From: a phage
Length of the DNA: 64,000 bases
Sequence record: OZ346212.1
Reading direction: 5' to 3' (one strand)
The position numbers were made by a program, and so were the translations under genes. Positions within the stretch are counted from its first letter, which is position 1, and each line of letters opens with the position of its first letter. Shown here piece after piece: positions 12,774 to 63,750 of the stretch. Below the pieces are notes generated by a model. That model searched no databases and had not been told where the DNA came from. It saw only the letters and a list, made by a program, of their open reading frames with translations.

Positions 12774-13099
12774 CAGAGATCATCATTTCAACTGCAGGGT
12801 ATGTATTCCTGACAATCATTGCACTGGCTATTTTGGTGACAGTGTATGGGTTTGTTATCCTTCCTATCCTTGAGACATTTAGTTTGTGTCGGTGTTGGAG
12901 AAAAGCTTACGGTCCACAACCATGGAAGGACTGGCCCCACCTGGTGCGCTTAGCGTTCTCTTATGCTTACGATCACTCCAGTAGTGCATGCATAACCGGA
13001 TACCACGCCCACAACTGGAGCTGGGAAGGGTTGAGGAAATGGAATGTTACAAAGACCATACCTCTGCGCATGTACAAACCTAAAAACAAAGACAACTGA
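12770..13099 (+). CDS. membrane protein
   Basis: N-terminal hydrophobic helix; RBS GGGGAGGA. Confidence 0.45.
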   Translation: MTEIIISTAGYVFLTIIALAILVTVYGFVILPILETFSLCRCWRKAYGPQPWKDWPHLVRLAFSYAYDHSSSACITGYHAHNWSWEGLRKWNVTKTIPLRMYKPKNKDN

Positions 13100-13705
13100 T
13101 ACTTGAAAATTCCTGGCATATCAAGTATAAGGGGGATTTCTAAAATGGATTTCCTCCTTTTGATATTTCACCGGGCTGGATATTTTAAAATTCTTAGAAA
13201 ATCAGAAAATGGATCGAAAACTAAAATGGATTTTTCAGAGTAGGCGCGACAAGCTGAATAACTCATCCTATCGTTTGCACCATATTCCAGGCCACCATTA
13301 TAGATTTCCCACACATGCTAACCTCTCCCTACTAGAACTTCCTCCACTTACCCTTGACCTTCTATGGTAACAATCTAACCGCTATCTTGAAGTTGCGGTG
13401 CAGCTTTCCAGGTACTCGATCTACTTTTCATTTCAGGGCTTGGATTTTCTGAAAATTTTTCTCGATAAATTTCTCAGTACTCGATCTGTTTTTCGTTTTC
13501 TGAATCGGATTTTCTGGAAATCGTTCCGGCTCTCAACCTGAAATTTTTGGGGACGAAATCGATTTTTCGTTTTCAGAAATGGATTTTTAAAATTTCTATA
13601 TGGGAATATTTTAGTGGATACTGTTTTATAGGAAATTGTTACGGAGGGTAATTAGCATGCTAATTAAATTTATTAAATGCGAGGAGTTCTCATTTAGAAT
13701 TTTGA
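13100..13705. repeat. AT-rich non-coding region with reiterated TGGATTTT-type motifs and ~50-bp direct repeats
   Basis: No credible ORF; motif at ~13147, 13181, 13230, 13440, 13510, 13590; direct repeats at ~13407 and ~13475. Confidence 0.6.
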
Positions 13706-14280
13706 ATGATAATCATTCTCGTTTGCAGAATAACGGGCAGGCCCGGTGATTGTCTCCCGGCCCCTGTTGCCCCGGCTTGTTATTATAGTATCACACAGGA
13801 CAAAGAAAGCAAGGACTTTTTGCATAAATTTTTAAATGATAATGATAACCGTTCTCATTTTATGCAGCGCCCATCCCCGGTGGTTGTCTCCCCCGTCACC
13901 GGTGCCTGCCGTCCTTTCGATATGTATATTGTGCCACCTGGCGGGGCCGCTGTCAACACTTTTCAAAAAATTTTTCTAACCTGGTGCGCTAACCGTTGCA
14001 ACCTGGCGGGGCCAGCCTGGCAGGACCTAACTGACCAGGTAGGGGAGAATGAAGGCTTGTAAACCTGGTGGGCCTATGCTACAGGATAGGTAACAATTGA
14101 AGAGGAGGTACAAAAATGATATGATCCCCCTGGAAAATGTAGCTATTAATGACTCTGAGGCTATCGCCCTGGTTGAAAAGGCTATGGCGGGAGCGTTGGA
14201 ACATAAAGAAGAGTACGAAAATGGTGGTTAACCTGGCGGGGGCGGCAGGTGGATTCTATCATAAAAATAATTTAAAATAG
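13706..14280. repeat. GC-rich repeat family (AACCTGGCGGGGCC) and duplicated ~60-bp segments
   Basis: Motif at ~13936, 14000, 14229 (also 20056); segments 13700-13790 and 13830-13920 share TGATAAT...CCGGTG(A/G)TTGTCTCCC. Confidence 0.55.
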
Positions 14281-14283
14281 TAG

Positions 14284-14311
14284 TTGACAACAAGGTTAAT
14301 CATGGTATTAT
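14284..14311 (+). promoter_or_regulatory. sigma70-like promoter (TTGACA-N16-TATTAT)
   Basis: Read from sequence. Confidence 0.55.
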
Positions 14312-14361
14312 TACCCTACAAGGTGAACAACACCGCACTAACCAGTAAAGAGGATAAATTT

Positions 14362-14559
14362 ATGAACGCATACGGGATCAAAGTACGTCGCAACACTCGC
14401 CAGGTGGTCACCAATCAAGTGATTTGCCGGGTGGATGTAACCATCAACAACGGGCAAGGCCTTTATAAATTTCGTCGCGGTCATAGCTATACCCTGCAAC
14501 AGCTTAATCGTTGCGCCCTGACAAAAGGTCAGATCAACCACTGGTTTAATAAAAAATAA
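14362..14559 (+). CDS. hypothetical early protein
   Basis: ATG 14362 after RBS AAGAGGA. Confidence 0.5.
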   Translation: MNAYGIKVRRNTRQVVTNQVICRVDVTINNGQGLYKFRRGHSYTLQQLNRCALTKGQINHWFNKK

Positions 14560-14623
14560 GTATTGACATACAGTCAGACACCAAATACACTAAAAGCACA
14601 AAAGACACTAAGAGGATAAAATC

Positions 14624-14809
14624 ATGAAAACCACTACCTTTAATTTTGATAATGCAGACTTTTCTTTTTCTGATGTCAAGAACTGCCGCCGTGATCGTGG
14701 ATTTTACAAGGCTTATAATCTGGTGGGCCTGGACGATGACAATAATTTGCACGAAGTAGCTGAGATCCAGCTTGACAGATTGGACGGGAAAGTACTAAAA
14801 ACTTATTGA
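14624..14809 (+). CDS. hypothetical early protein
   Basis: RBS AAGAGGA; own promoter at 14563. Confidence 0.5.
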   Translation: MKTTTFNFDNADFSFSDVKNCRRDRGFYKAYNLVGLDDDNNLHEVAEIQLDRLDGKVLKTY

Positions 14810-14811
14810 GT

Positions 14812-14856
14812 TTATTTTTAGATGGCCTTGACACCAGGGCCATCAATAAAGTAAAC
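14812..14856 (+). repeat. conserved 45-bp promoter-associated element, copy 1
   Basis: TTATTTTTAGATGGCCTTGACACCAGGGCCATCAATAAAGTAAAC; TTGACA sits in the loop of the ATGGCC/GGCCAT inverted repeat. Confidence 0.6.
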
Positions 14857-14889
14857 TAACCACAGTTGAGCGGAAAAGGAGGCTTAAAG

Positions 14890-15012
14890 ATGAGCACTAC
14901 ACGCCAGCACACAAAGGTAACCATCATCGTTTGCATCATTGGGTACATCCTGGCGCAAATGTTGATGGGTAGCGCCAACGGTGTCGCAAAATTTTTCTTA
15001 AACTTTTAATTG
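14890..15012 (+). CDS. small hydrophobic peptide (40 aa)
   Basis: Not in ORF track (<60 aa); RBS AAAGGAGG; MSTTRQHTKVTIIVCIIGYILAQMLMGSANGVAKFFLTFN. Confidence 0.45.
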
Positions 15013-15036
15013 ACAAGCTAACTTAAATCGATATAA
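15009..15036 (+). promoter_or_regulatory. sigma70-like promoter (TTGACA-N16-TATAAT)
   Basis: Read from sequence. Confidence 0.6.
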
Positions 15037-15088
15037 TAAGCACATAAACGGGAAAACTTCCCAGAACACACAAAAGGAGAAAAACACC

Positions 15089-15430
15089 ATGACTACTATG
15101 ACCGCCTCAGAAAAAGCTATGCAGATCGCTGAACTGAAAAAACAGATCGCAGACCTTGAGAATAAGATCGATAACTTTGAAATCGACGAGGACAAGTACG
15201 ACGAAAACTATGATGAATGGTTAGACGAGATCTACGGCGAAATTATGATCGGAAACATTTCTTTTCTTCCGTCGCGTATCCTCAAGGAGCTAGATCCTAT
15301 CGCTTACCGCTGCGGATTTAGCGACTACATCGACAGCCTGGATATTGAGGACGATGAAGAATACCAGGAATTACAGACAGAGTTAGAAGAAGCAAAAGAA
15401 GAGCTTGCGGAGCTGGAAGAAAACGAGTAA
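15089..15430 (+). CDS. acidic coiled-coil protein
   Basis: RBS AAAGGAGA; E/D-rich. Confidence 0.55.
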   Translation: MTTMTASEKAMQIAELKKQIADLENKIDNFEIDEDKYDENYDEWLDEIYGEIMIGNISFLPSRILKELDPIAYRCGFSDYIDSLDIEDDEEYQELQTELEEAKEELAELEENE

Positions 15431-15432
15431 GC

Positions 15433-15477
15433 TTATTTTTAGATGGCCTTGACACCAGGGCCATCAATAAAGTAAAC
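15433..15477 (+). repeat. conserved 45-bp promoter-associated element, copy 2
   Basis: Identical to copy 1. Confidence 0.6.
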
Positions 15478-15519
15478 TTTATACTGTTAACACTGAACTA
15501 ATGCATAGGAGTTAAAACC

Positions 15520-15765
15520 ATGGCAGCACTAATCACCAAATATTATGCCCCTACCAACACCAAAAGCGCCCGTATCATGGTAAAAGGCTTCGGACGTAAA
15601 AAGGTGTACACCTGGGATTATGCCTTAGACACGGAAGACAACTACACCAACGCAATGACCGATTTTATTAATGAACTAAATAAGCAGATCTTGACAAGTT
15701 ATAAAGTGACCGATATTGCTTATATAGGTGAAGGCGGGATCTGTTTTGTAGGCATTGTGAAATAG
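15520..15765 (+). CDS. hypothetical early protein
   Basis: RBS TAGGAG. Confidence 0.5.
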   Translation: MAALITKYYAPTNTKSARIMVKGFGRKKVYTWDYALDTEDNYTNAMTDFINELNKQILTSYKVTDIAYIGEGGICFVGIVK

Positions 15766-15839
15766 TTATTTTTTCGGTGGTCCTGGTTGCAGGGCCATCT
15801 ATAAAGATAATTTATTAACACCATGAAAGGAGAAAGTAC

Positions 15840-16193
15840 ATGATCAGCGGGGCAAGTTTTATTATTGGCGCTATTGCTACGGCTTTAATTGTAAATAAGA
15901 TCCAGGATAAAAAGGAAAGAGGAAGTACCGCCCTTGCAGAATATCCATTTTGGGCATTCAACGATAACGAAGATTATATTATAAAGTATAAAAATAAAGA
16001 AGGTGACCAAGTAACACCGCGACCGATCCCGGCTTACAAAATGCAGGAAACACTATACCGCCTGGAGGCGGGTGGCGCAAAAATTGTAGACTTTTGGGGA
16101 TACGACCACACAGATCAGGAAGTTATAAAGCGCCGTATCCGGGCTATTCAGGCCAATATTGAAGTTAGCAAGGGGGGAATATATGAAAATTAA
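15840..16193 (+). CDS. membrane-anchored protein
   Basis: N-terminal TM helix; RBS AAAGGAGA. Confidence 0.5.
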   Translation: MISGASFIIGAIATALIVNKIQDKKERGSTALAEYPFWAFNDNEDYIIKYKNKEGDQVTPRPIPAYKMQETLYRLEAGGAKIVDFWGYDHTDQEVIKRRIRAIQANIEVSKGGIYEN

Positions 16194-16380
16194 TTTCGAG
16201 AAAATTGTAAAGCGCCCTCATGATTCCGAAGAGCTGCCAGAACGCCGCCAGCGTAACAATAAACTGAATAAGCCAAAAAGGTTTGGGAAGATCTGGCGTA
16301 ATCATTATGATCGTAAATTGCCCGGCCTACTTTTGGAACGTGAACGACAGGCAGAACGATACCGCCATAAAGACAAATAA
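16183..16380 (+). CDS. small basic protein
   Basis: Start moved to ATG 16183 after RBS AAGGGGGG; K/R-rich. Confidence 0.45.
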   Translation: MKINFEKIVKRPHDSEELPERRQRNNKLNKPKRFGKIWRNHYDRKLPGLLLERERQAERYRHKDK

Positions 16381-16388
16381 CAACCAAC

Positions 16389-16418
16389 GCCCCGCCATTG
16401 TGCGGGGCTTTTTATTTC
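16389..16418 (+). terminator. intrinsic terminator
   Basis: GCCCCGC-cattgt-GCGGGGC followed by TTTTTATTT. Confidence 0.75.
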
Positions 16419-16537
16419 TATCCTACGAATAGCGCCCCTGGTTGGCCCTGTAAGCGCCAAAAAGGCCCCCACCTATGCAATCGCCCCTTTAACCTGAAAA
16501 CATCGCCCAGGGCCGTTTCATGGCGTTAAAAATATCA

Positions 16538-16565
16538 TTGACATCGTCAACAGGTTAGCTATACT
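16538..16565 (+). promoter_or_regulatory. sigma70-like promoter (TTGACA-N16-TATACT)
   Basis: Read from sequence. Confidence 0.55.
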
Positions 16566-16597
16566 AACCACATCAAAGAGAGAAAGGAGTAAACGCC

Positions 16598-16858
16598 ATG
16601 CGTAAATTAAAAAATTTTGATAAAGTTGATGTTATCCTGAATAATTTTTACTACTGCAACAACAAGGCTATTTGGTGGCGTGATAGTTCCACCGATAAAG
16701 TCAGGGCGCGCTTTCTTCAGGGGCACTGGCAAGGCCGCCCAGTGATTAAAATCATGGGGCAATCGGTAGCGTTTAAAAATTGCCGCCGTGTTGATGACGT
16801 TGAGGAGATTTTAAACATTTTGCGCCACAATAATTTAAAAAATAGTGTTGACAAGTAA
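16598..16858 (+). CDS. hypothetical early protein
   Basis: RBS AAAGGAG. Confidence 0.5.
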   Translation: MRKLKNFDKVDVILNNFYYCNNKAIWWRDSSTDKVRARFLQGHWQGRPVIKIMGQSVAFKNCRRVDDVEEILNILRHNNLKNSVDK

Positions 16859-16875
16859 GCCTCAATAAGTATACT
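16848..16875 (+). promoter_or_regulatory. sigma70-like promoter (TTGACA-N16-TATACT)
   Basis: Read from sequence. Confidence 0.55.
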
Positions 16876-16932
16876 TAAACACACAGGCGGGAAAACTTCC
16901 CGCCACTAACAAAGAAAATAGGAGAAAATATC

Positions 16933-17556
16933 ATGACCACCGTTAACATTACCGCAGGTTACAATTTATCTTTCGACGTGCTGACCGACGAACAAAAAGA
17001 AAAAGCCGTTGAAATGGTCCGCGAAAGAGAAGAACACAGCGGGGATAACTTTTTTGCAGAAAGTGTAATTGAATACTATAAAGAATATGTTTTTCCAGAG
17101 TATGGCCTTGAAGATACCGAAGTACATTGGTCAGGCTTTTGGTGCCAGGGTGACGGCGCGTCAATCAGTGCTGAAAACGTGGATTTAGAAAAATTTTTAC
17201 GTAAAGTAAAGGCCCTGACCAAGTTCCGATCAATTCGTCACTTGTTCGGCACAATGCACGATGGCGAGTTATCAGCCAGTGTTGAACGCGACAAGTACAG
17301 CCATTACAGCCATGAAAACACTGTAAGCGGGTACATTGATACCACTTGGCTAGATCTGACCGCCAAACAAGAAAACAAAGTGGAAGACCTGGAAGAACTG
17401 ATCACCGAGACGGTACGGGAGCTATCCCGCAAGGTTTACGTAGACCTGGAGGAGGCCTATCTAGAACAGTTCACCGCAGAAAACCTGATCGGCCTTATCG
17501 AGGCCAATGATTGGCGGTTTGATGTCGATGAATATGGTGAGATGACTTTTTCATAA
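16933..17556 (+). CDS. hypothetical early protein (207 aa, acidic)
   Basis: RBS TAGGAGA; largest ORF of the early cluster. Confidence 0.6.
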   Translation: MTTVNITAGYNLSFDVLTDEQKEKAVEMVREREEHSGDNFFAESVIEYYKEYVFPEYGLEDTEVHWSGFWCQGDGASISAENVDLEKFLRKVKALTKFRSIRHLFGTMHDGELSASVERDKYSHYSHENTVSGYIDTTWLDLTAKQENKVEDLEELITETVRELSRKVYVDLEEAYLEQFTAENLIGLIEANDWRFDVDEYGEMTFS

Positions 17557-17564
17557 ATAAAGTG

Positions 17565-17592
17565 TTGCAATAACCTAAAAACCTGCTATATT
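17565..17592 (+). promoter_or_regulatory. sigma70-like promoter (TTGCAA-N16-TATATT)
   Basis: Read from sequence. Confidence 0.5.
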
Positions 17593-17646
17593 AAAACTCA
17601 AGGGGGCAAGACGTTTGCCCCAACACAAAACAAAGAGGATAACATC

Positions 17647-18027
17647 ATGAAAAACACTACCAAGGCTATTGACACCGTTATGTTTAACCTGGTTACATTC
17701 CGTGAAGATATGAAAGATCTTCCTCGTGAAACAGTGTGCGACCATATCGAAAACTATCGCAAACTAATCAAAGAGTTGCCTTTAAAACGTGATCAATATG
17801 CGGCTAACGCCATGCTTAATGCCATGATCAAAAAGATGATCCAGTGTGATTTAACCCTGGCCTATGATTATGCAGGCGGTCGTTTTGCAGTATACAATCA
17901 GCCCGTGCCCGGTATGAGCACCACCGAAGAATTGCACGCGCTCAATCTAAAACAAGACGTGTGGGATAGTATGCCTCGCGTGGTGGTATGGGTAGAAAGC
18001 GGAAAGATTTACGGCGATAATTTTTAA
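17647..18027 (+). CDS. hypothetical early protein
   Basis: RBS AAGAGGA. Confidence 0.55.
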   Translation: MKNTTKAIDTVMFNLVTFREDMKDLPRETVCDHIENYRKLIKELPLKRDQYAANAMLNAMIKKMIQCDLTLAYDYAGGRFAVYNQPVPGMSTTEELHALNLKQDVWDSMPRVVVWVESGKIYGDNF

Positions 18028-18037
18028 TCAGGTAGCA

Positions 18038-18063
18038 GGCGGCATATTTGCCGCCTTATTGTT
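18038..18063 (+). terminator. intrinsic terminator
   Basis: GGCGGCA-tattt-GCCGCC followed by TTATTGTT. Confidence 0.6.
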
Positions 18064-18091
18064 AATCAGAACTGTAAAAGAGGTACATAGA

Positions 18092-18463
18092 ATGGAATTT
18101 ATTATTTTGGCTGTATTGGTTGCCTTGTTTAACGCCTGGATCGCTGGCAAGATGGGAAGATCCGCCTTTTTATGGTTTATTATATCTATTTTCCTGGGGG
18201 TGGTTGCAACTATTGTATTGGTTATCCTTGCAATTGTTGACAAGGGGAATAATAGAAAGGGTAAAGTATTTTCAGACCTGTACGACGCTCAAACGTTTGT
18301 CAACGCCTATTATAGTGATCTTCCAGTCTCCCTACGTTGCAGCCTTGCACAACAGGTTTTCGATGAAGCTAAAACCAGAGATCACGCCCATGAGATTTGT
18401 TTAACTGAGGCGGATCGCCTATTTGAGAGGAATAGAAAATATGTGGACCAGCCGTTTAAATAA
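18092..18463 (+). CDS. membrane protein
   Basis: Start moved to ATG 18092 after RBS AAGAGG; two hydrophobic helices. Confidence 0.5.
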   Translation: MEFIILAVLVALFNAWIAGKMGRSAFLWFIISIFLGVVATIVLVILAIVDKGNNRKGKVFSDLYDAQTFVNAYYSDLPVSLRCSLAQQVFDEAKTRDHAHEICLTEADRLFERNRKYVDQPFK

Positions 18464-18682
18464 TGCCACGTTAATTAACCCCTTTAGTAAAGATTTGAAG
18501 CCAGCCGCCTGGCGGGATGGATTCAATAACGAACGCTTTATTTTCAGGCCTGATCTTGAGGAATTTTATAACAATGGATCGAACAACAGCGGAGATAATT
18601 TTTCTTGTGGTGTGTGTCGTGATAGGACTCCTGGGGGCCATTGTAGATCGCGTCACTACTACCAGAAGGAAAGGGGGAGACG

Positions 18683-18802
18683 ATGACAACCAAGGATAAG
18701 CCCCGCACCGATAAGGTGCGCCGTGTTATGGTATGGCTTGAGATCATCGCCCTTGAAATATTGTTAGGCGTAGGGATGTATTTTATCTCTGTAAGTAACT
18801 GA
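18683..18802 (+). CDS. small membrane peptide (39 aa)
   Basis: Not in ORF track; strong RBS AAGGGGGAGA; MTTKDKPRTDKVRRVMVWLEIIALEILLGVGMYFISVSN. Confidence 0.45.
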   Translation: MTTKDKPRTDKVRRVMVWLEIIALEILLGVGMYFISVSN

Positions 18803-18806
18803 TAAC

Positions 18807-18838
18807 GGCCCCCGATCCCTGGGGGGCCTAACTTTTTT
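18807..18838 (+). terminator. intrinsic terminator
   Basis: GGCCCCC...GGGGGGCC followed by TTTTTT. Confidence 0.7.
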
Positions 18839-18861
18839 CAAAAAATTTTTCTTCCGGGGTG

Positions 18862-18890
18862 TTGCAATCCGGTCCTGAATATGGATAATA
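18862..18890 (+). promoter_or_regulatory. sigma70-like promoter (TTGCAA-N17-ATAATA)
   Basis: Read from sequence. Confidence 0.5.
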
Positions 18891-18945
18891 ACAATCAACG
18901 GGGAAACATCCCCACCAACACAAAAACCAGAAAGGAGAAACAAAA

Positions 18946-19146
18946 ATGAGCAACAATATCCGCGTTATTAACTTCAAAAAAGAAGAAAAAATTGCCGTGC
19001 TGATTGACGGTCAAGAAATCTTCAAGGGCGACTATGAAGATCATCAAACGGCGATTAGTATCACTCGCGTGATTGGTTACCATAATTTTTACCCCCAAGG
19101 CGCTGAGGCGGCGGTTAAACGAATCAAAGAGATTGTAGGCCTGTAA
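18946..19146 (+). CDS. hypothetical early protein
   Basis: RBS AAAGGAGA. Confidence 0.5.
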   Translation: MSNNIRVINFKKEEKIAVLIDGQEIFKGDYEDHQTAISITRVIGYHNFYPQGAEAAVKRIKEIVGL

Positions 19147-19149
19147 AAT

Positions 19150-19194
19150 TTATTTTTAGATGGCCTTGACTCTAGGGCCATCAATAAAGTAAAT
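19150..19194 (+). repeat. conserved 45-bp promoter-associated element, copy 3
   Basis: Two substitutions relative to copies 1 and 2. Confidence 0.6.
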
Positions 19195-19233
19195 TTAAAC
19201 CCTGTTAAAATACCACGCAGTTAACAAGGAGTA

Positions 19234-19539
19234 ATGATCATGTTTATCCAGGCTAATAATCTTTATTTCTTTGATGGTCAGATCGTAGATGGTGTGGAAG
19301 TGGAGATCACTGGGTGCCCTGGTGGTCAGGCTATGACTTTTCGGAATAATGCCTTTGATGATTCTCATATCGTTATGAGAATGGAAGTTACAAAGCTGGA
19401 CGACAAGAAAACGCTCATTGACTATTCCGTGAAAGATCATCCAGACTACCACATGATCTATGGTGATTTGTGCATTGTTGACCGTGACAAGGTGGGCGGC
19501 ATTGTGATCGCTATTGTGAACGATGTTTTCTCTGTATAG
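19234..19539 (+). CDS. hypothetical early protein
   Basis: RBS CAAGGAG. Confidence 0.5.
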   Translation: MIMFIQANNLYFFDGQIVDGVEVEITGCPGGQAMTFRNNAFDDSHIVMRMEVTKLDDKKTLIDYSVKDHPDYHMIYGDLCIVDRDKVGGIVIAIVNDVFSV

Positions 19540-19600
19540 TTCCGGCAAATGATGCAAAATAAGGCCCCTAGCAGGGCCTACAGCGATATAATCACATAAA

Positions 19601-19630
19601 GGCCATGCAACCGCATGGCCTTTATTATTT
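19601..19630 (+). terminator. intrinsic terminator
   Basis: GGCCATGC-aacc-GCATGGCC followed by TTTATTATTT. Confidence 0.7.
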
Positions 19631-19678
19631 TGGCGTTACAGCGGCCCCAAGGCGCTTAAAAATTTTTTAAAGAAGTAC

Positions 19679-19706
19679 TTGCATCAAGCCCTACAATATG
19701 GATAAT
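19679..19706 (+). promoter_or_regulatory. sigma70-like promoter (TTGCAT-N16-GATAAT)
   Basis: Read from sequence. Confidence 0.5.
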
Positions 19707-19717
19707 AGGACGTGTCA

Positions 19718-19731
19718 GGGGGGGGGGGGGG
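19718..19731 (+). repeat. G14 homopolymeric tract in 5' leader
   Basis: 14 consecutive G between the -10 box and the RBS of gene 19771. Confidence 0.9.
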
Positions 19732-19770
19732 AGGCCCCAATCATTAACCGGATAGATAGGAGTTAAAACC

Positions 19771-20055
19771 ATGGCTATTGTTACCGCTGGCGATGTAGTA
19801 GAAATGGAAGCAAAATACTTAAAAGCGGGTATGCATATCCTACGCAACGATCTTGAACTGGTCCTGACAATGGTTGACTATAACCCAGGGCAAGATTATC
19901 CAAGTGTTGACTACTTTTTTGAGTATGTTGATGAAGAGTTGAAAGAGGATGAGGCCTATTGCGGTGAGTTCTGCAACTTCTTTTGTCCTGATGAGGTTGT
20001 AAAGGTTATCTATCAACCTGGCGTAGCTTTCCCGCTGCACGCTATCAATAAATAA
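19771..20055 (+). CDS. hypothetical early protein
   Basis: RBS TAGGAG. Confidence 0.5.
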   Translation: MAIVTAGDVVEMEAKYLKAGMHILRNDLELVLTMVDYNPGQDYPSVDYFFEYVDEELKEDEAYCGEFCNFFCPDEVVKVIYQPGVAFPLHAINK

Positions 20056-20117
20056 ACCTGGCGGGGCCGAAAAGGCCCCCGCCTGAAATTATGAAAAATA
20101 AAAAGAGGCAAACTATC

Positions 20118-20351
20118 ATGATGGAACAAATTAAACGCGCTGAGGCTATTAATGGCAATGTAATCTATTTTGTCAGCAAAAACGAAAAAGGCGTACCCTA
20201 TGCGGCGGTAATAGTACAGCCTGACGGCGATTATTGGTGCACTGTGTACGGCGCTTATTCTTTTGGGCGTCCAGTGCATGATAAAATTTTGAAAGTAGCG
20301 AACCCTACCGGGAAAAATATTACAGCAGAAAAATTTTTTGAAAAAAGTTGA
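20118..20351 (+). CDS. hypothetical early protein
   Basis: Start moved to ATG 20118 after RBS AAGAGG. Confidence 0.5.
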   Translation: MMEQIKRAEAINGNVIYFVSKNEKGVPYAAVIVQPDGDYWCTVYGAYSFGRPVHDKILKVANPTGKNITAEKFFEKS

Positions 20352-20375
20352 CATGACCATATAAAACTGTAGTAT
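20348..20375 (+). promoter_or_regulatory. sigma70-like promoter (TTGACA-N16-TAGTAT)
   Basis: Read from sequence. Confidence 0.5.
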
Positions 20376-20427
20376 ATAAATCAAAGGGGGCAACAAGCCC
20401 CACCAACCACAAAGAGGATAAAAAATC

Positions 20428-20607
20428 ATGGCTATTATTGCAAAGACCGAGATCGTAGGCTTAGATTCTATTCTCCTCGCATATGAGGAAGCTATAGAAA
20501 TGTATGTGGTTTCCTATGGTGAGTATATCCGTGAATATGAATCTATTGATCTAGCTTTTGAATGTTATATTCGCCAGGTTAATAAAGCGTACGATGATTA
20601 TCGTTAA
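20428..20607 (+). CDS. hypothetical early protein (59 aa)
   Basis: Not in ORF track; RBS AAGAGGA. Confidence 0.45.
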   Translation: MAIIAKTEIVGLDSILLAYEEAIEMYVVSYGEYIREYESIDLAFECYIRQVNKAYDDYR

Positions 20608-20698
20608 AATAGTTTGACAACAAACAACCATCTAACAAAGCATAATACATAAGGTGGTAGAATGATCCGCCACCCGGAACAAAGAAGAGGTAAACACC

Positions 20699-20944
20699 AT
20701 GAAAAGCAATAAAGGTTATAACGGTTACAAAAACAAAACTCATTGGAATGTAAGCCTTTGGATTAATAACGATGAGTCATTGTACCGGTTGGCCCAAGGA
20801 TTTATTAACGCTAATGCTAATCGTAATGATGCGGCGCGGGATATGATGCTTTTTCTGGAGCTAACCGGACAAGATAAGACCCCGGACGGCTTCAAGTACA
20901 GCACTACGGCGATCCGTGCCGCGATGGTTGGAATGAAACACTAA
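20699..20944 (+). CDS. hypothetical early protein
   Basis: RBS AGAAGAGG. Confidence 0.5.
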   Translation: MKSNKGYNGYKNKTHWNVSLWINNDESLYRLAQGFINANANRNDAARDMMLFLELTGQDKTPDGFKYSTTAIRAAMVGMKH

Positions 20945-21271
20945 AAGCACATAGCCGCCAGATCTCAGAATTTACGTACGCTCACCAGTCTATAGCCTGC
21001 TAAGTATTTATTCCAACCATAGAATAACGGAATAGTCAATACCTGCATAAAATAATTATTCGTGTAAACTGCATAACATAAATCGGCTAGGATGTCAACA
21101 TTTTTCGTAAACAGCTCGAAATTATAACGGTGAGTTATAATAAACAGAGAAATCTTTAGTCGTCTAATGTTTACTGTACATTACTATACTGACTGGAATC
21201 ATTAGATGACTAAGAGAAAGATAAGAAATCATTAACAATGCAATTGTTTTATTCGTAACAATAAGGCAACT

Positions 21272-21563
21272 ATGCAAACGGATGGCATGGCGCGACGGAG
21301 TCGCGACATAATATAAAAGCAGTAACCATCACCCCCGTGATAGTTTGTCTGCAAACTATTAATCAGATCATAGTTGCCTTGTATTTAGTTAATCATGACA
21401 TAACAAGCAAGGCAACTATAGATCTGCTAATAGTTGCCCTGCTTTTATATTATGTCATAGATTATTAGCCTGTTAATTGTTAGTCAGTCAAATCAACAAC
21501 GTTATCATTTCAGTCTTTATTGTTGTTGATCGTTATTGTTATCATGCAAACGAATGGCATGGC
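21272..21563. repeat. dyad-symmetry cluster bounded by 20-bp direct repeats
   Basis: ATGCAAACG(G/A)ATGGCATGGC at 21272 and 21544; between them AGGCAACTAT in both orientations, ATGACATAA/TTATGTCAT and CGCGAC/GTCGCG palindromes. Confidence 0.6.
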
Positions 21564-21936
21564 TTATCATTTTTGAGTAAACAATCTATACGTGAACAGT
21601 GAGGCAAGTTAGCAGCCGATAGATTAGATATTAACCTGCAGACTTCTGACCGTCTAGACGTCTAAACGCCCACACAACAAGGATTATACATACAATACTG
21701 AATGTAAACAGGGCCGCAAAAATGCTACCATACCACAGATTGTAAATTTTTCATGCAGCACTTGACAAAGAGGAGAACTTAATTTTATCAGGATAGGCAA
21801 GAATGTCAAGGCATGACTGCTCACTAAACAAGCAAACAGTCATGTGTGGGAGGTAAGTGATTGTGGTGGTAGGAAATTTAGTTGAAAGATGTGTTATAGG
21901 TGCTTCCAGCACTTTAGCCGGGCAGCTAATTGTGTG

Positions 21937-22152
21937 TCAGTCCAGCGGTTCATCCTCTACTTCACTGAAATCAATGTTCATGGTCTCTTCCCAACCATCG
22001 ATCTCAGCACAAGAGTGGAGTTCTTTAGGGTTTACTCCTAAAGCCTCAGCAACAGAGTCTATATTTAACACCTCTGGCAGGTATGATTCATCAAATTCAA
22101 GGTAAATCAGGCCACGAGTGTTGTCAGCTCCACCAAATATTTCTATCTTCAT
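21937..22152 (-). CDS. hypothetical acidic protein
   Basis: ORF track. Confidence 0.45.
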   Translation of the reverse strand: MKIEIFGGADNTRGLIYLEFDESYLPEVLNIDSVAEALGVNPKELHSCAEIDGWEETMNIDFSEVEDEPLD

Positions 22153-63584: not shown

Positions 63585-63659
63585 GCCCTGTTAGCTTAGT
63601 GGATAAAGCAGCGGCCTTCTAAGCCGTTGACACTGGTTCGAGTCCAGTACGGGGTGCCA
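63585..63659 (+). tRNA. tRNA-Arg (anticodon TCT)
   Basis: Cloverleaf folded by hand: acceptor GCCCTGT/ACGGGGT, D-stem GCTT/AAGC, anticodon loop CTTCTAA, T-loop TTCGAGT, encoded CCA. Confidence 0.8.
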
Positions 63660-63663
63660 AATT

Positions 63664-63750
63664 GGGGAGTTATCCCGTAGAGGTAGCGGTGTAGACTGTA
63701 AATCTATTGTCATTGCGACTCGGGTGGTTCGACTCCACCACTCCCCACCA
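63664..63750 (+). tRNA. tRNA-Tyr (anticodon GTA)
   Basis: Acceptor GGGGAGT/ACTCCCC, anticodon loop CTGTAAA, long variable arm, T-loop TTCGACT, encoded CCA. Confidence 0.8.

Follow-up and report, generated by a model that had tools for sequence, protein, structure and literature searches.

The window analysed here comprises 64,000 nucleotides (nt) of phage sequence record OZ346212.1, given as one strand from 5' to 3', and on its megablast matches it is an rV5-like coliphage (Vequintavirus). Our subject is a set of very small genes on its plus strand, namely three open reading frames (ORFs) termed ORF A, ORF B and ORF C, and a fourth ORF of 41 amino acids (aa) that lies in the +1 frame directly upstream of ORF B. 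A search with positions 14000-21000 matched 279 phage records with Escherichia phage AlexBoehm as the closest at 94.7% identity, and the close matches were all Vequintavirus, rV5-like myoviruses of ~137 kilobases (kb). According to the guanine-cytosine (GC) skew, the gene block is on the plus strand up to ~22 kb and on the minus strand thereafter, and synteny identifies the plus-strand block as the rV5 unit through genes 238 to 164. An earlier note on this DNA had listed A, B and C as small hydrophobic peptides. All three ORFs exist, B and C exactly at 18683..18802 and 20428..20607, while A ends at 15009 and not at 15012. Its description of a ribosome-binding site followed by a single transmembrane (TM) segment is borne out for A and B, each of which has a Shine-Dalgarno (SD) sequence and one hydrophobic helix in 39 aa, and the two lie within a cluster of short genes with sigma-70-type promoters. 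ORF C does not belong among hydrophobic peptides, as it is acidic, with a net charge of -6 and a maximum hydropathy of only 1.55 (Kyte-Doolittle, 17 residues).

Table 1. Genes and regulatory features of the small-gene region in window coordinates; the small ORFs are listed first.
Feature	Position	Strand	Description
ORF A (rV5 gp193)	ATG 14890..15009, stop 15007-15009	+	39 aa, phrog_16391
+1-frame ORF	18574..18699	+	41 aa; shares sequence with the end of gp182 and with nt 1-17 of ORF B
ORF B (rV5 gp181)	18683..18802	+	39 aa, phrog_13629
ORF C (rV5 gp174)	20428..20607	+	59 aa, phrog_9374
SD of ORF A, AAGGAGG	14876..14882	+	7 nt before the ORF A start
Presumed translation-initiation region of the +1 ORF	18559..18578	+	20 nt: GAGGAA, spacer, ATG
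SD of ORF B, GGGGGAG	18673..18679	+	3 nt before the ORF B start; inside invariant run 18675-18687
gp183 homologue	18092..18463	+	123 aa, two N-terminal TM helices and a soluble C-terminal part; phrog_13090
gp182 homologue	18441..18686	+	81 aa, phrog_12060
Candidate repeat promoter	14812..14857	+	TTATTTTTA; palindrome GATGGCC/GGCCATC around -35 TTGACA (14828), 18-nt spacer, -10 TAAACT
Perfect consensus sigma-70 promoter, TTGACA-16-TATAAT	15010..15037	+	12/12 match; rV5 'P192' (DQ832317)
Promoter-like site, TTGCAA-16-TATATT	17565..17592	+	extended -10 TG; phage Gotham has a predicted promoter at this place
Promoter-like site, TTGACA-16-TAGTAT	20348..20375	+	upstream of ORF C
Intrinsic terminator	18807..18838	+	7 G-C pairs, then TAACTTTTTT; strong, closes the gp184-gp181 unit

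In the plus strand of positions 13000-22000 we found three ATG-initiated ORFs of 30-60 aa that combine an SD with a TM-like stretch. The chance expectation for such ORFs, from 200 dinucleotide-preserving shuffles, is 0.05 +/- 0.22 with a maximum of 1. For measuring selection, the homologous region was taken from ~20 relatives, and substitutions were counted per codon position as well as by the Nei-Gojobori method; ratios of nonsynonymous to synonymous change (pN/pS) for ORFs A, B and C are based on 14-17 distinct relatives. Alternative frames either contained stops or had a pN/pS close to 1 or higher. A search of IMG/VR with a neighbouring 207-aa protein contributed two close loci. Calibration was done on 14 established neighbouring genes cut into 933 sliding windows of 90 nt, and the wobble position was the dominant variable phase in every one of them (933/933).

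ORF B matches its PHROG family over the full length (E=2.8e-31, residues 1-39/39) and is placed as in rV5, after the gp182 homologue and before a terminator. It consists of MTTKDKPRTDKVRRV, the TM helix MVWLEIIALEILLGVGMYFISV and a final SN, thus ending 2 residues past the helix. Using tblastn we obtained the ORF from 119 phage records, all of Vequintavirus type, at 80-100% identity. Its frame is open in all relatives examined and under purifying selection with a pN/pS of 0.22 and 8/9/21 changes at codon positions 1/2/3, and its other two frames contain stops in all sequences. The selection is distributed very unevenly. Codons 17-35 (VWLEIIALEILLGVGMYFI) have collected 10 synonymous variants and 0 replacements across the relatives, whereas the 19 flanking codons have 8 synonymous changes and 16 replacements (Fisher p=0.0004). 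Two glutamates and a GxG motif within the TM helix are invariant. The motif VW-EIIALE--LG-GMYF is retained even in the most divergent homologues, which are 56% identical to the window peptide; one of these is encoded on a 132-kb metagenomic contig (L027), where the neighbouring genes hardly resemble the window, or any phage of the collection, at the DNA level. Profile searches against 5.8 billion and 1.84 billion proteins recovered only the family itself, apart from one extra match in the hmmsearch of the 1.84 billion representatives, which is repetitive and false. Because a plain membrane anchor would accept hydrophobic swaps, it is apparently the sequence of the helix that carries the function. 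The invariant core beside freely changing flanks therefore most likely reflects a sequence-specific helix-helix contact in the bilayer.

ORF A similarly covers the whole of its family profile (E=1.8e-31, residues 1-39 of 39 positions) and, as in rV5, is flanked by the ORF194 and ORF192 homologues. Its SD is kept in the relatives as GGAGG or GGGGG. The peptide begins with MSTTRQHTK, continues with the TM segment VTIIVCIIGYILAQMLM and ends with the tail GSANGVAKFFLNF. Its pN/pS is also 0.22, with changes at codon positions 1/2/3 of 15/10/25; the frame is open in 14/14 distinct relatives and both other frames are interrupted by stops in every sequence. tblastn detected ORF A in 113 phage records, again all of Vequintavirus type and 80-100% identical, and a search with an alignment of the homologues found the family to be confined to this group. 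On an 86-kb Logan contig, the 83-aa protein P0035 ends in the C-terminal 18 residues of ORF A (AQMLMGSANGVAKFFLNF), preceded by an unrelated N-terminus. It apparently represents another deletion-fusion in a relative, besides the one found upstream of ORF A in the window (see below).

Between gp183 and ORF B, where a gp182 homologue is usually annotated, the phase of variation changes. Coding constraint on gp182 is limited to its first ~45 codons and is weak even there (pN/pS 0.35, compared with 1.06 in the tail). Following the dominant variable phase along the region, we observed a weak signal in the gp182 frame at 18441-18560, then the +1 frame at 18561-18650 and finally the frame of ORF B; substitution counts at 18561-18650 in the phase of the +1 frame were 10/2/4 and 10/4/6. 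The +1 frame holds the 41-aa ORF, whose product MDRTTAEIIFLVVCVVIGLLGAIVDRVTTTRRKGGDDDNQG is built from MDRTTAE, the TM segment IIFLVVCVVIGLLGAIV and the C-terminal part DRVTTTRRKGGDDDNQG. In all relatives that came from the phage collection or IMG/VR it is open with its ATG kept, and 118 records gave a tblastn alignment to it. In the overlap the +1 reading has a pN/pS of 0.38 and 6/9/16 changes by codon position.

We lean towards the 41-aa ORF being a real translated gene. The alternative is that it is no gene, with gp182 the sole product and the open +1 frame incidental, a possibility that we consider appreciable although it is the one we would not choose. This alternative agrees with the records, as gp182 is annotated in rV5, AlexBoehm, isim and most other records examined; the +1 ORF is annotated in a single GenBank phage record, Gotham (F10B_0188), and in three metagenome gene calls. 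Three observations speak against the 41-aa ORF. Its SD-like GAGGAA is separated from the ATG by 11-12 nt, a long and poor spacing, and the wobble excess reaches p=0.027 only. Moreover, a nonsense mutation at codon 7 and the loss of 1 nt from a G-run interrupt the +1 ORF in one Logan contig, L028; the gp182 frame remains open in this contig and the deletion fuses it to the +1 C-terminus. What the no-gene reading does not explain is the pattern of change in the gp182 frame, where substitutions pile up on codon position 1 (16/6/9, pN/pS 1.06). This excess is the wobble position of the +1 frame, and such a pattern occurred in 0/933 control windows. Nor does the stop of gp182 stay in place among the relatives (18660-18686). 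The window and most relatives examined have a TGA that overlaps the start codon of ORF B (ATGA), and at least 5 relatives have a stop 20 nt earlier, which shortens the product from 81 to 73 aa. In addition, the longest invariant run of the region, in which 27.6% of the sites are variable, is the 20 nt that include the ATG of the +1 ORF, and these are unchanged even in the more divergent contigs L028 and L013. Finally, the CPT annotators of phage Mangalyan left gp182 out and placed no gene in the whole stretch. As the selection signal rides on the 41-aa ORF in the other frame, the standard annotation of gp182 is probably wrong in part. Tracking the wobble phase over ~20 close genomes is a cheap route to missed small genes of this kind. 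A programmed +1 frameshift that would lead from gp182 into the frame of the 41-aa ORF was also considered and rejected, since there is no slippery site and the only rare-codon candidate, TTC AGG (18543-18548), is not conserved, reading AAA in L013 and L004.

The three peptides share the hydropathy and charge pattern of single-pass micro-proteins. The 17-residue Kyte-Doolittle maximum is 2.39 for ORF A, 3.34 for the 41-aa peptide, which is the most hydrophobic of the three, and 2.23 for ORF B, and the basic flanks are asymmetric, with lysine plus arginine counts on the N- and C-terminal sides of 2/1, 1/4 and 6/0, respectively. Applying the positive-inside rule, ORF A is predicted to be oriented N-in/C-out and ORF B N-in and essentially tail-anchored. 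The 41-aa peptide is predicted to be N-out/C-in because its basic residues are on the C-terminal side.

ORF C shows the strictest constraint of the three annotated ORFs, with a pN/pS of 0.03 and changes at codon positions 1/2/3 of 3/1/15. It matches its family at residues 1-59/59 (E=7.8e-39), has an SD (AAGAGGA) upstream, and both other frames contain stops in all sequences. AlphaFold2 run on the single sequence returned a two-helix hairpin at low confidence (pLDDT 62.6), which is probably the fold of the protein; a sequence search of the PDB gave no significant match for ORF C. In Table S3 of the rV5 paper (PMC3606486) gp174 is listed with 59 aa and an isoelectric point of 4.3. ORF C is a small acidic protein, predicted to be soluble and cytoplasmic, unrelated to A and B and not a membrane protein.

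The earlier note had called the three ORFs unannotated, a label that follows from its own 60-aa cutoff and that the records contradict. They correspond to rV5 ORF193, ORF181 and ORF174 (DQ832317) and are coding-sequence features in AlexBoehm, isim, rV5_ev156, MiataMamis, FFH2 and others; the label used in the A51.2 and HMD-6 records is 'putative membrane protein'. All three match full-length PHROG families to which PHROGs assigns no function. Kropinski et al. 2013 (Table S3, PMC3606486) describe gp193 and gp181 as membrane proteins of 39 aa with one TM domain (TMD), as predicted by TMHMM/Phobius. These are the direct orthologues of A and B (PMC3606486; DQ832317), with the same length, position and gene order at 80-100% identity, so that A and B have been on record as 1-TMD membrane proteins since 2013. 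The same table contains seven single-TMD proteins of 50 aa or less (PMC3606486), and tiny single-TMD genes are therefore a known trait of the group. As first described, the peptides add nothing to the public record, being listed for rV5 in 2013 and in PHROGs. What is new is how strictly selection acts on the gp181 helix, together with an ORF of 41 aa that is almost never annotated and lies in another frame upstream of ORF B.

Promoter-like sites are placed close to these genes. The equivalent of rV5 P192 begins directly past the ORF A stop. The promoter-like site upstream of gp183 probably drives gp184-gp183-gp182/alt-gp181, and ORF B is probably the final cistron of the unit gp184-gp183-gp182-gp181. 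The sigma-70-type promoters and the gene order suggest early expression of A and B. In the literature we found no transcriptome, ribosome profiling (Ribo-seq) or infected-cell proteome for Vequintavirus. Within the unit, gp183 is well conserved (pN/pS 0.08); its sub-threshold matches to NEMP, DUF805 and PycTM were discarded as noise from TM composition, and a sequence search of the PDB yielded no significant match for gp183.

Taken together, we propose that A, B and probably the 41-aa ORF are translated as single-pass inner-membrane micro-proteins of 39-41 residues, encoded in the accessory gene cluster that sigma-70 promoters drive in rV5-like coliphages. The peptides are too small for enzymes and would act as intramembrane binders. 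gp181 would be the clearest case, as its polar invariant helix implies a specific partner. This could be an inner-membrane protein of the host, or else gp183 and the 41-aa peptide, with which gp181 is probably co-transcribed. Binding would then alter some host membrane function during infection. We give this proposal, including its mechanism, about an even chance. Several points weigh against it. The proteomics that we found for this phage group (rV5 paper, PMC3606486) covers structural proteins only. No homologue of known function was obtained for the peptides from Pfam, NCBIfam, PADLOC or PHROGs, or from the exhaustive hmmsearch of ORF B. The neighbouring genes, with a pN/pS of <0.1, are under stronger constraint than A, B and the 41-aa ORF (0.2-0.4).

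Peptides of this kind have precedents in bacteria. AcrZ, MgrB and type I toxins such as TisB are small membrane proteins of bacteria. Another is YohP, with 27 aa (PMC7549839; bioRxiv 10.1101/2025.05.06.652344). Like the window peptides, these proteins have fewer than 50 aa, a single TM helix and no catalytic domain, and they bind larger membrane proteins or depolarise the membrane; they are chromosomal and show no similarity to the window peptides. A phage example is Gp11 of PhiNM1 in Staphylococcus aureus, an early small membrane protein that binds MurG and DivIC and blocks division (PMC11237401). The mechanism that we propose for the window peptides is of this type, although host and phage are different, there is no homology, and the target of Gp11 was found by experiment. 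Among the many orphan genes of these therapeutic-candidate phages, gp181 is a good first candidate for a target hunt because selection on its helix is unusually strict and sequence-specific.

Superinfection exclusion is one alternative function. T4 Imm and Sp are early inner-membrane superinfection-exclusion proteins of 83-97 aa with larger extramembrane parts. Like the window peptides they are small phage membrane proteins made before lysis that act on the envelope, and they have no sequence similarity to them. In analogy to Imm, the inner-membrane peptides would block the DNA entry of later phages, which would suit their predicted membrane location, the sigma-70-driven accessory cluster and the retention of ORF B across divergent relatives. 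However, neither A, B nor the 41-aa ORF matches Imm or any other exclusion family in Pfam, NCBIfam or PADLOC, and the 2-13 residues predicted to reach the periplasm are too short to act on outer-membrane receptors. We regard exclusion as unlikely.

Membrane permeabilisation seems to us equally unlikely. Here an ORF B oligomer, perhaps together with gp183 and the 41-aa peptide, would form a pore lined by glutamates and depolarise the membrane for host shut-off or lysis timing, after the model of a holin, antiholin, viroporin or type I toxin. The two invariant acidic residues inside the TM helix fit such a pore, as do the opposite predicted topologies of ORF B and the 41-aa peptide. The adjoining gp183 is even named 'putative holin' in BASEL records. 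This label rests on the TM helices of gp183 without a family match; in rV5 the protein is listed as 'membrane protein, 1-2 TMD' (Table S3, PMC3606486). We found no Pfam, NCBIfam or annotated PHROG holin match for the peptides or for gp183. Furthermore, tens of kb separate the genes from the lysin gp89 as well as from gp129, the holin proposed in the rV5 paper (PMC3606486), and ORF B, with its end so close to the helix, lacks a charged C-terminal tail.

The divergent contigs L027 and L029 show what accompanies ORF B elsewhere. Both contain an uncalled 33-aa ORF with a single TM segment (MLAGLIKNPEIFCGLLFIVICLVAGFYLSNFRK; L027 4889-4990, L029 462-563) that is conserved between them. It starts behind an SD, AAGGAGG in L027 and kept as GGAGG in L029, lies 10 nt upstream of the ORF B homologue and so occupies the place of the 41-aa ORF in the window. 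BLASTP of the 41-aa peptide against the 33-aa peptide of L027 aligned only a hydrophobic stretch of 12 residues, which falls short of establishing homology. We set aside a third small ORF with a TM segment, located in L027 past the ORF B homologue, because its ATG is lost in L029. Further upstream, ~600 nt before the ORF B homologue, both contigs carry a 39-aa gene of the Lambda_Kil family (PF06301; L027 4285-4404, L029 33-152), which indicates that ORF B travels among small host-directed genes. Lambda Kil is a soluble inhibitor of FtsZ, and ORF B has no match to PF06301. A Kil homologue in the window was found neither by tblastn with the Kil-like protein of L027 nor by a Pfam scan of the window peptides.

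A more specific idea, to which we assign a low probability, is that the last two cistrons of the gp184-gp181 unit, the 41-aa ORF and gp181, encode a conserved pair of oppositely oriented micro-proteins, which as a hetero-oligomer in the inner membrane would conduct ions or clamp a host membrane protein. Since the divergent lineage also has a TM ORF upstream, gp181 and the peptide before it would in that case be an old two-peptide module, and one that gene callers have systematically missed. That A and B are chance ORFs, or leader ORFs whose translation matters and not the product, is very improbable. Their small size, their restriction to a single phage group and the lack of known homologues would fit this idea, but both have a pN/pS of 0.22, the 19-residue core of ORF B is invariant despite its 10 synonymous changes, and the ORFs are open in 113-119 phage records; the chance expectation from the shuffles is 0.05 such ORFs.

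Upstream of ORF A the window carries a 694-nt deletion relative to AlexBoehm and rV5 (14624-14809). Its junction at 14762-14768 is a 7-nt microhomology, GAGATCC, and it joins codons 1-48 of rV5 ORF195 in frame to the final 13 codons of ORF194, resulting in an ORF of 61 aa. This phage can therefore do without most of gp195 and gp194. Between this fusion and ORF A lies one of three window copies (14812-14857, 15433-15478 and 19150-19195) of a repeat of about 44-46 nt, TTATTTTTAGATGGCCTTGACACCAGGGCCATCAATAAAGTAAAC. Every copy begins 3-4 nt past a stop codon, and a 7-bp palindrome flanks its -35 element TTGACA. BLAST detected three copies per relative, and the copy before ORF A aligns in all of them; the rV5 record has no repeat annotated between ORF194 and ORF193. 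The repeat could be an operator-controlled promoter or a hairpin for RNA processing or stability. A role as terminator was rejected, as no T-run follows the hairpin.

A region 93-95% identical to this rV5-like sequence is also present in ~17-22 records of the collection (MG0656xx) that are named 'Campylobacter phage' with Campylobacter jejuni as host; on their sequences, these host labels look doubtful. Rfam gave no match in the region of the small-peptide genes, and its sole matches in the 64 kb were two transfer RNA genes at the far end of the window (63585-63745). Finally, the stretch at ~20950-21850, where the two gene blocks diverge, has no convincing ORFs and is the counterpart of the 'no ORFs' region 104013-106618 of the rV5 paper (PMC3606486). 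It contains four copies of ATAGTTGCCYTG in both orientations (21262-21441) as well as an 18-nt perfect inverted repeat (21305/21439), and it may be an origin or regulatory region.

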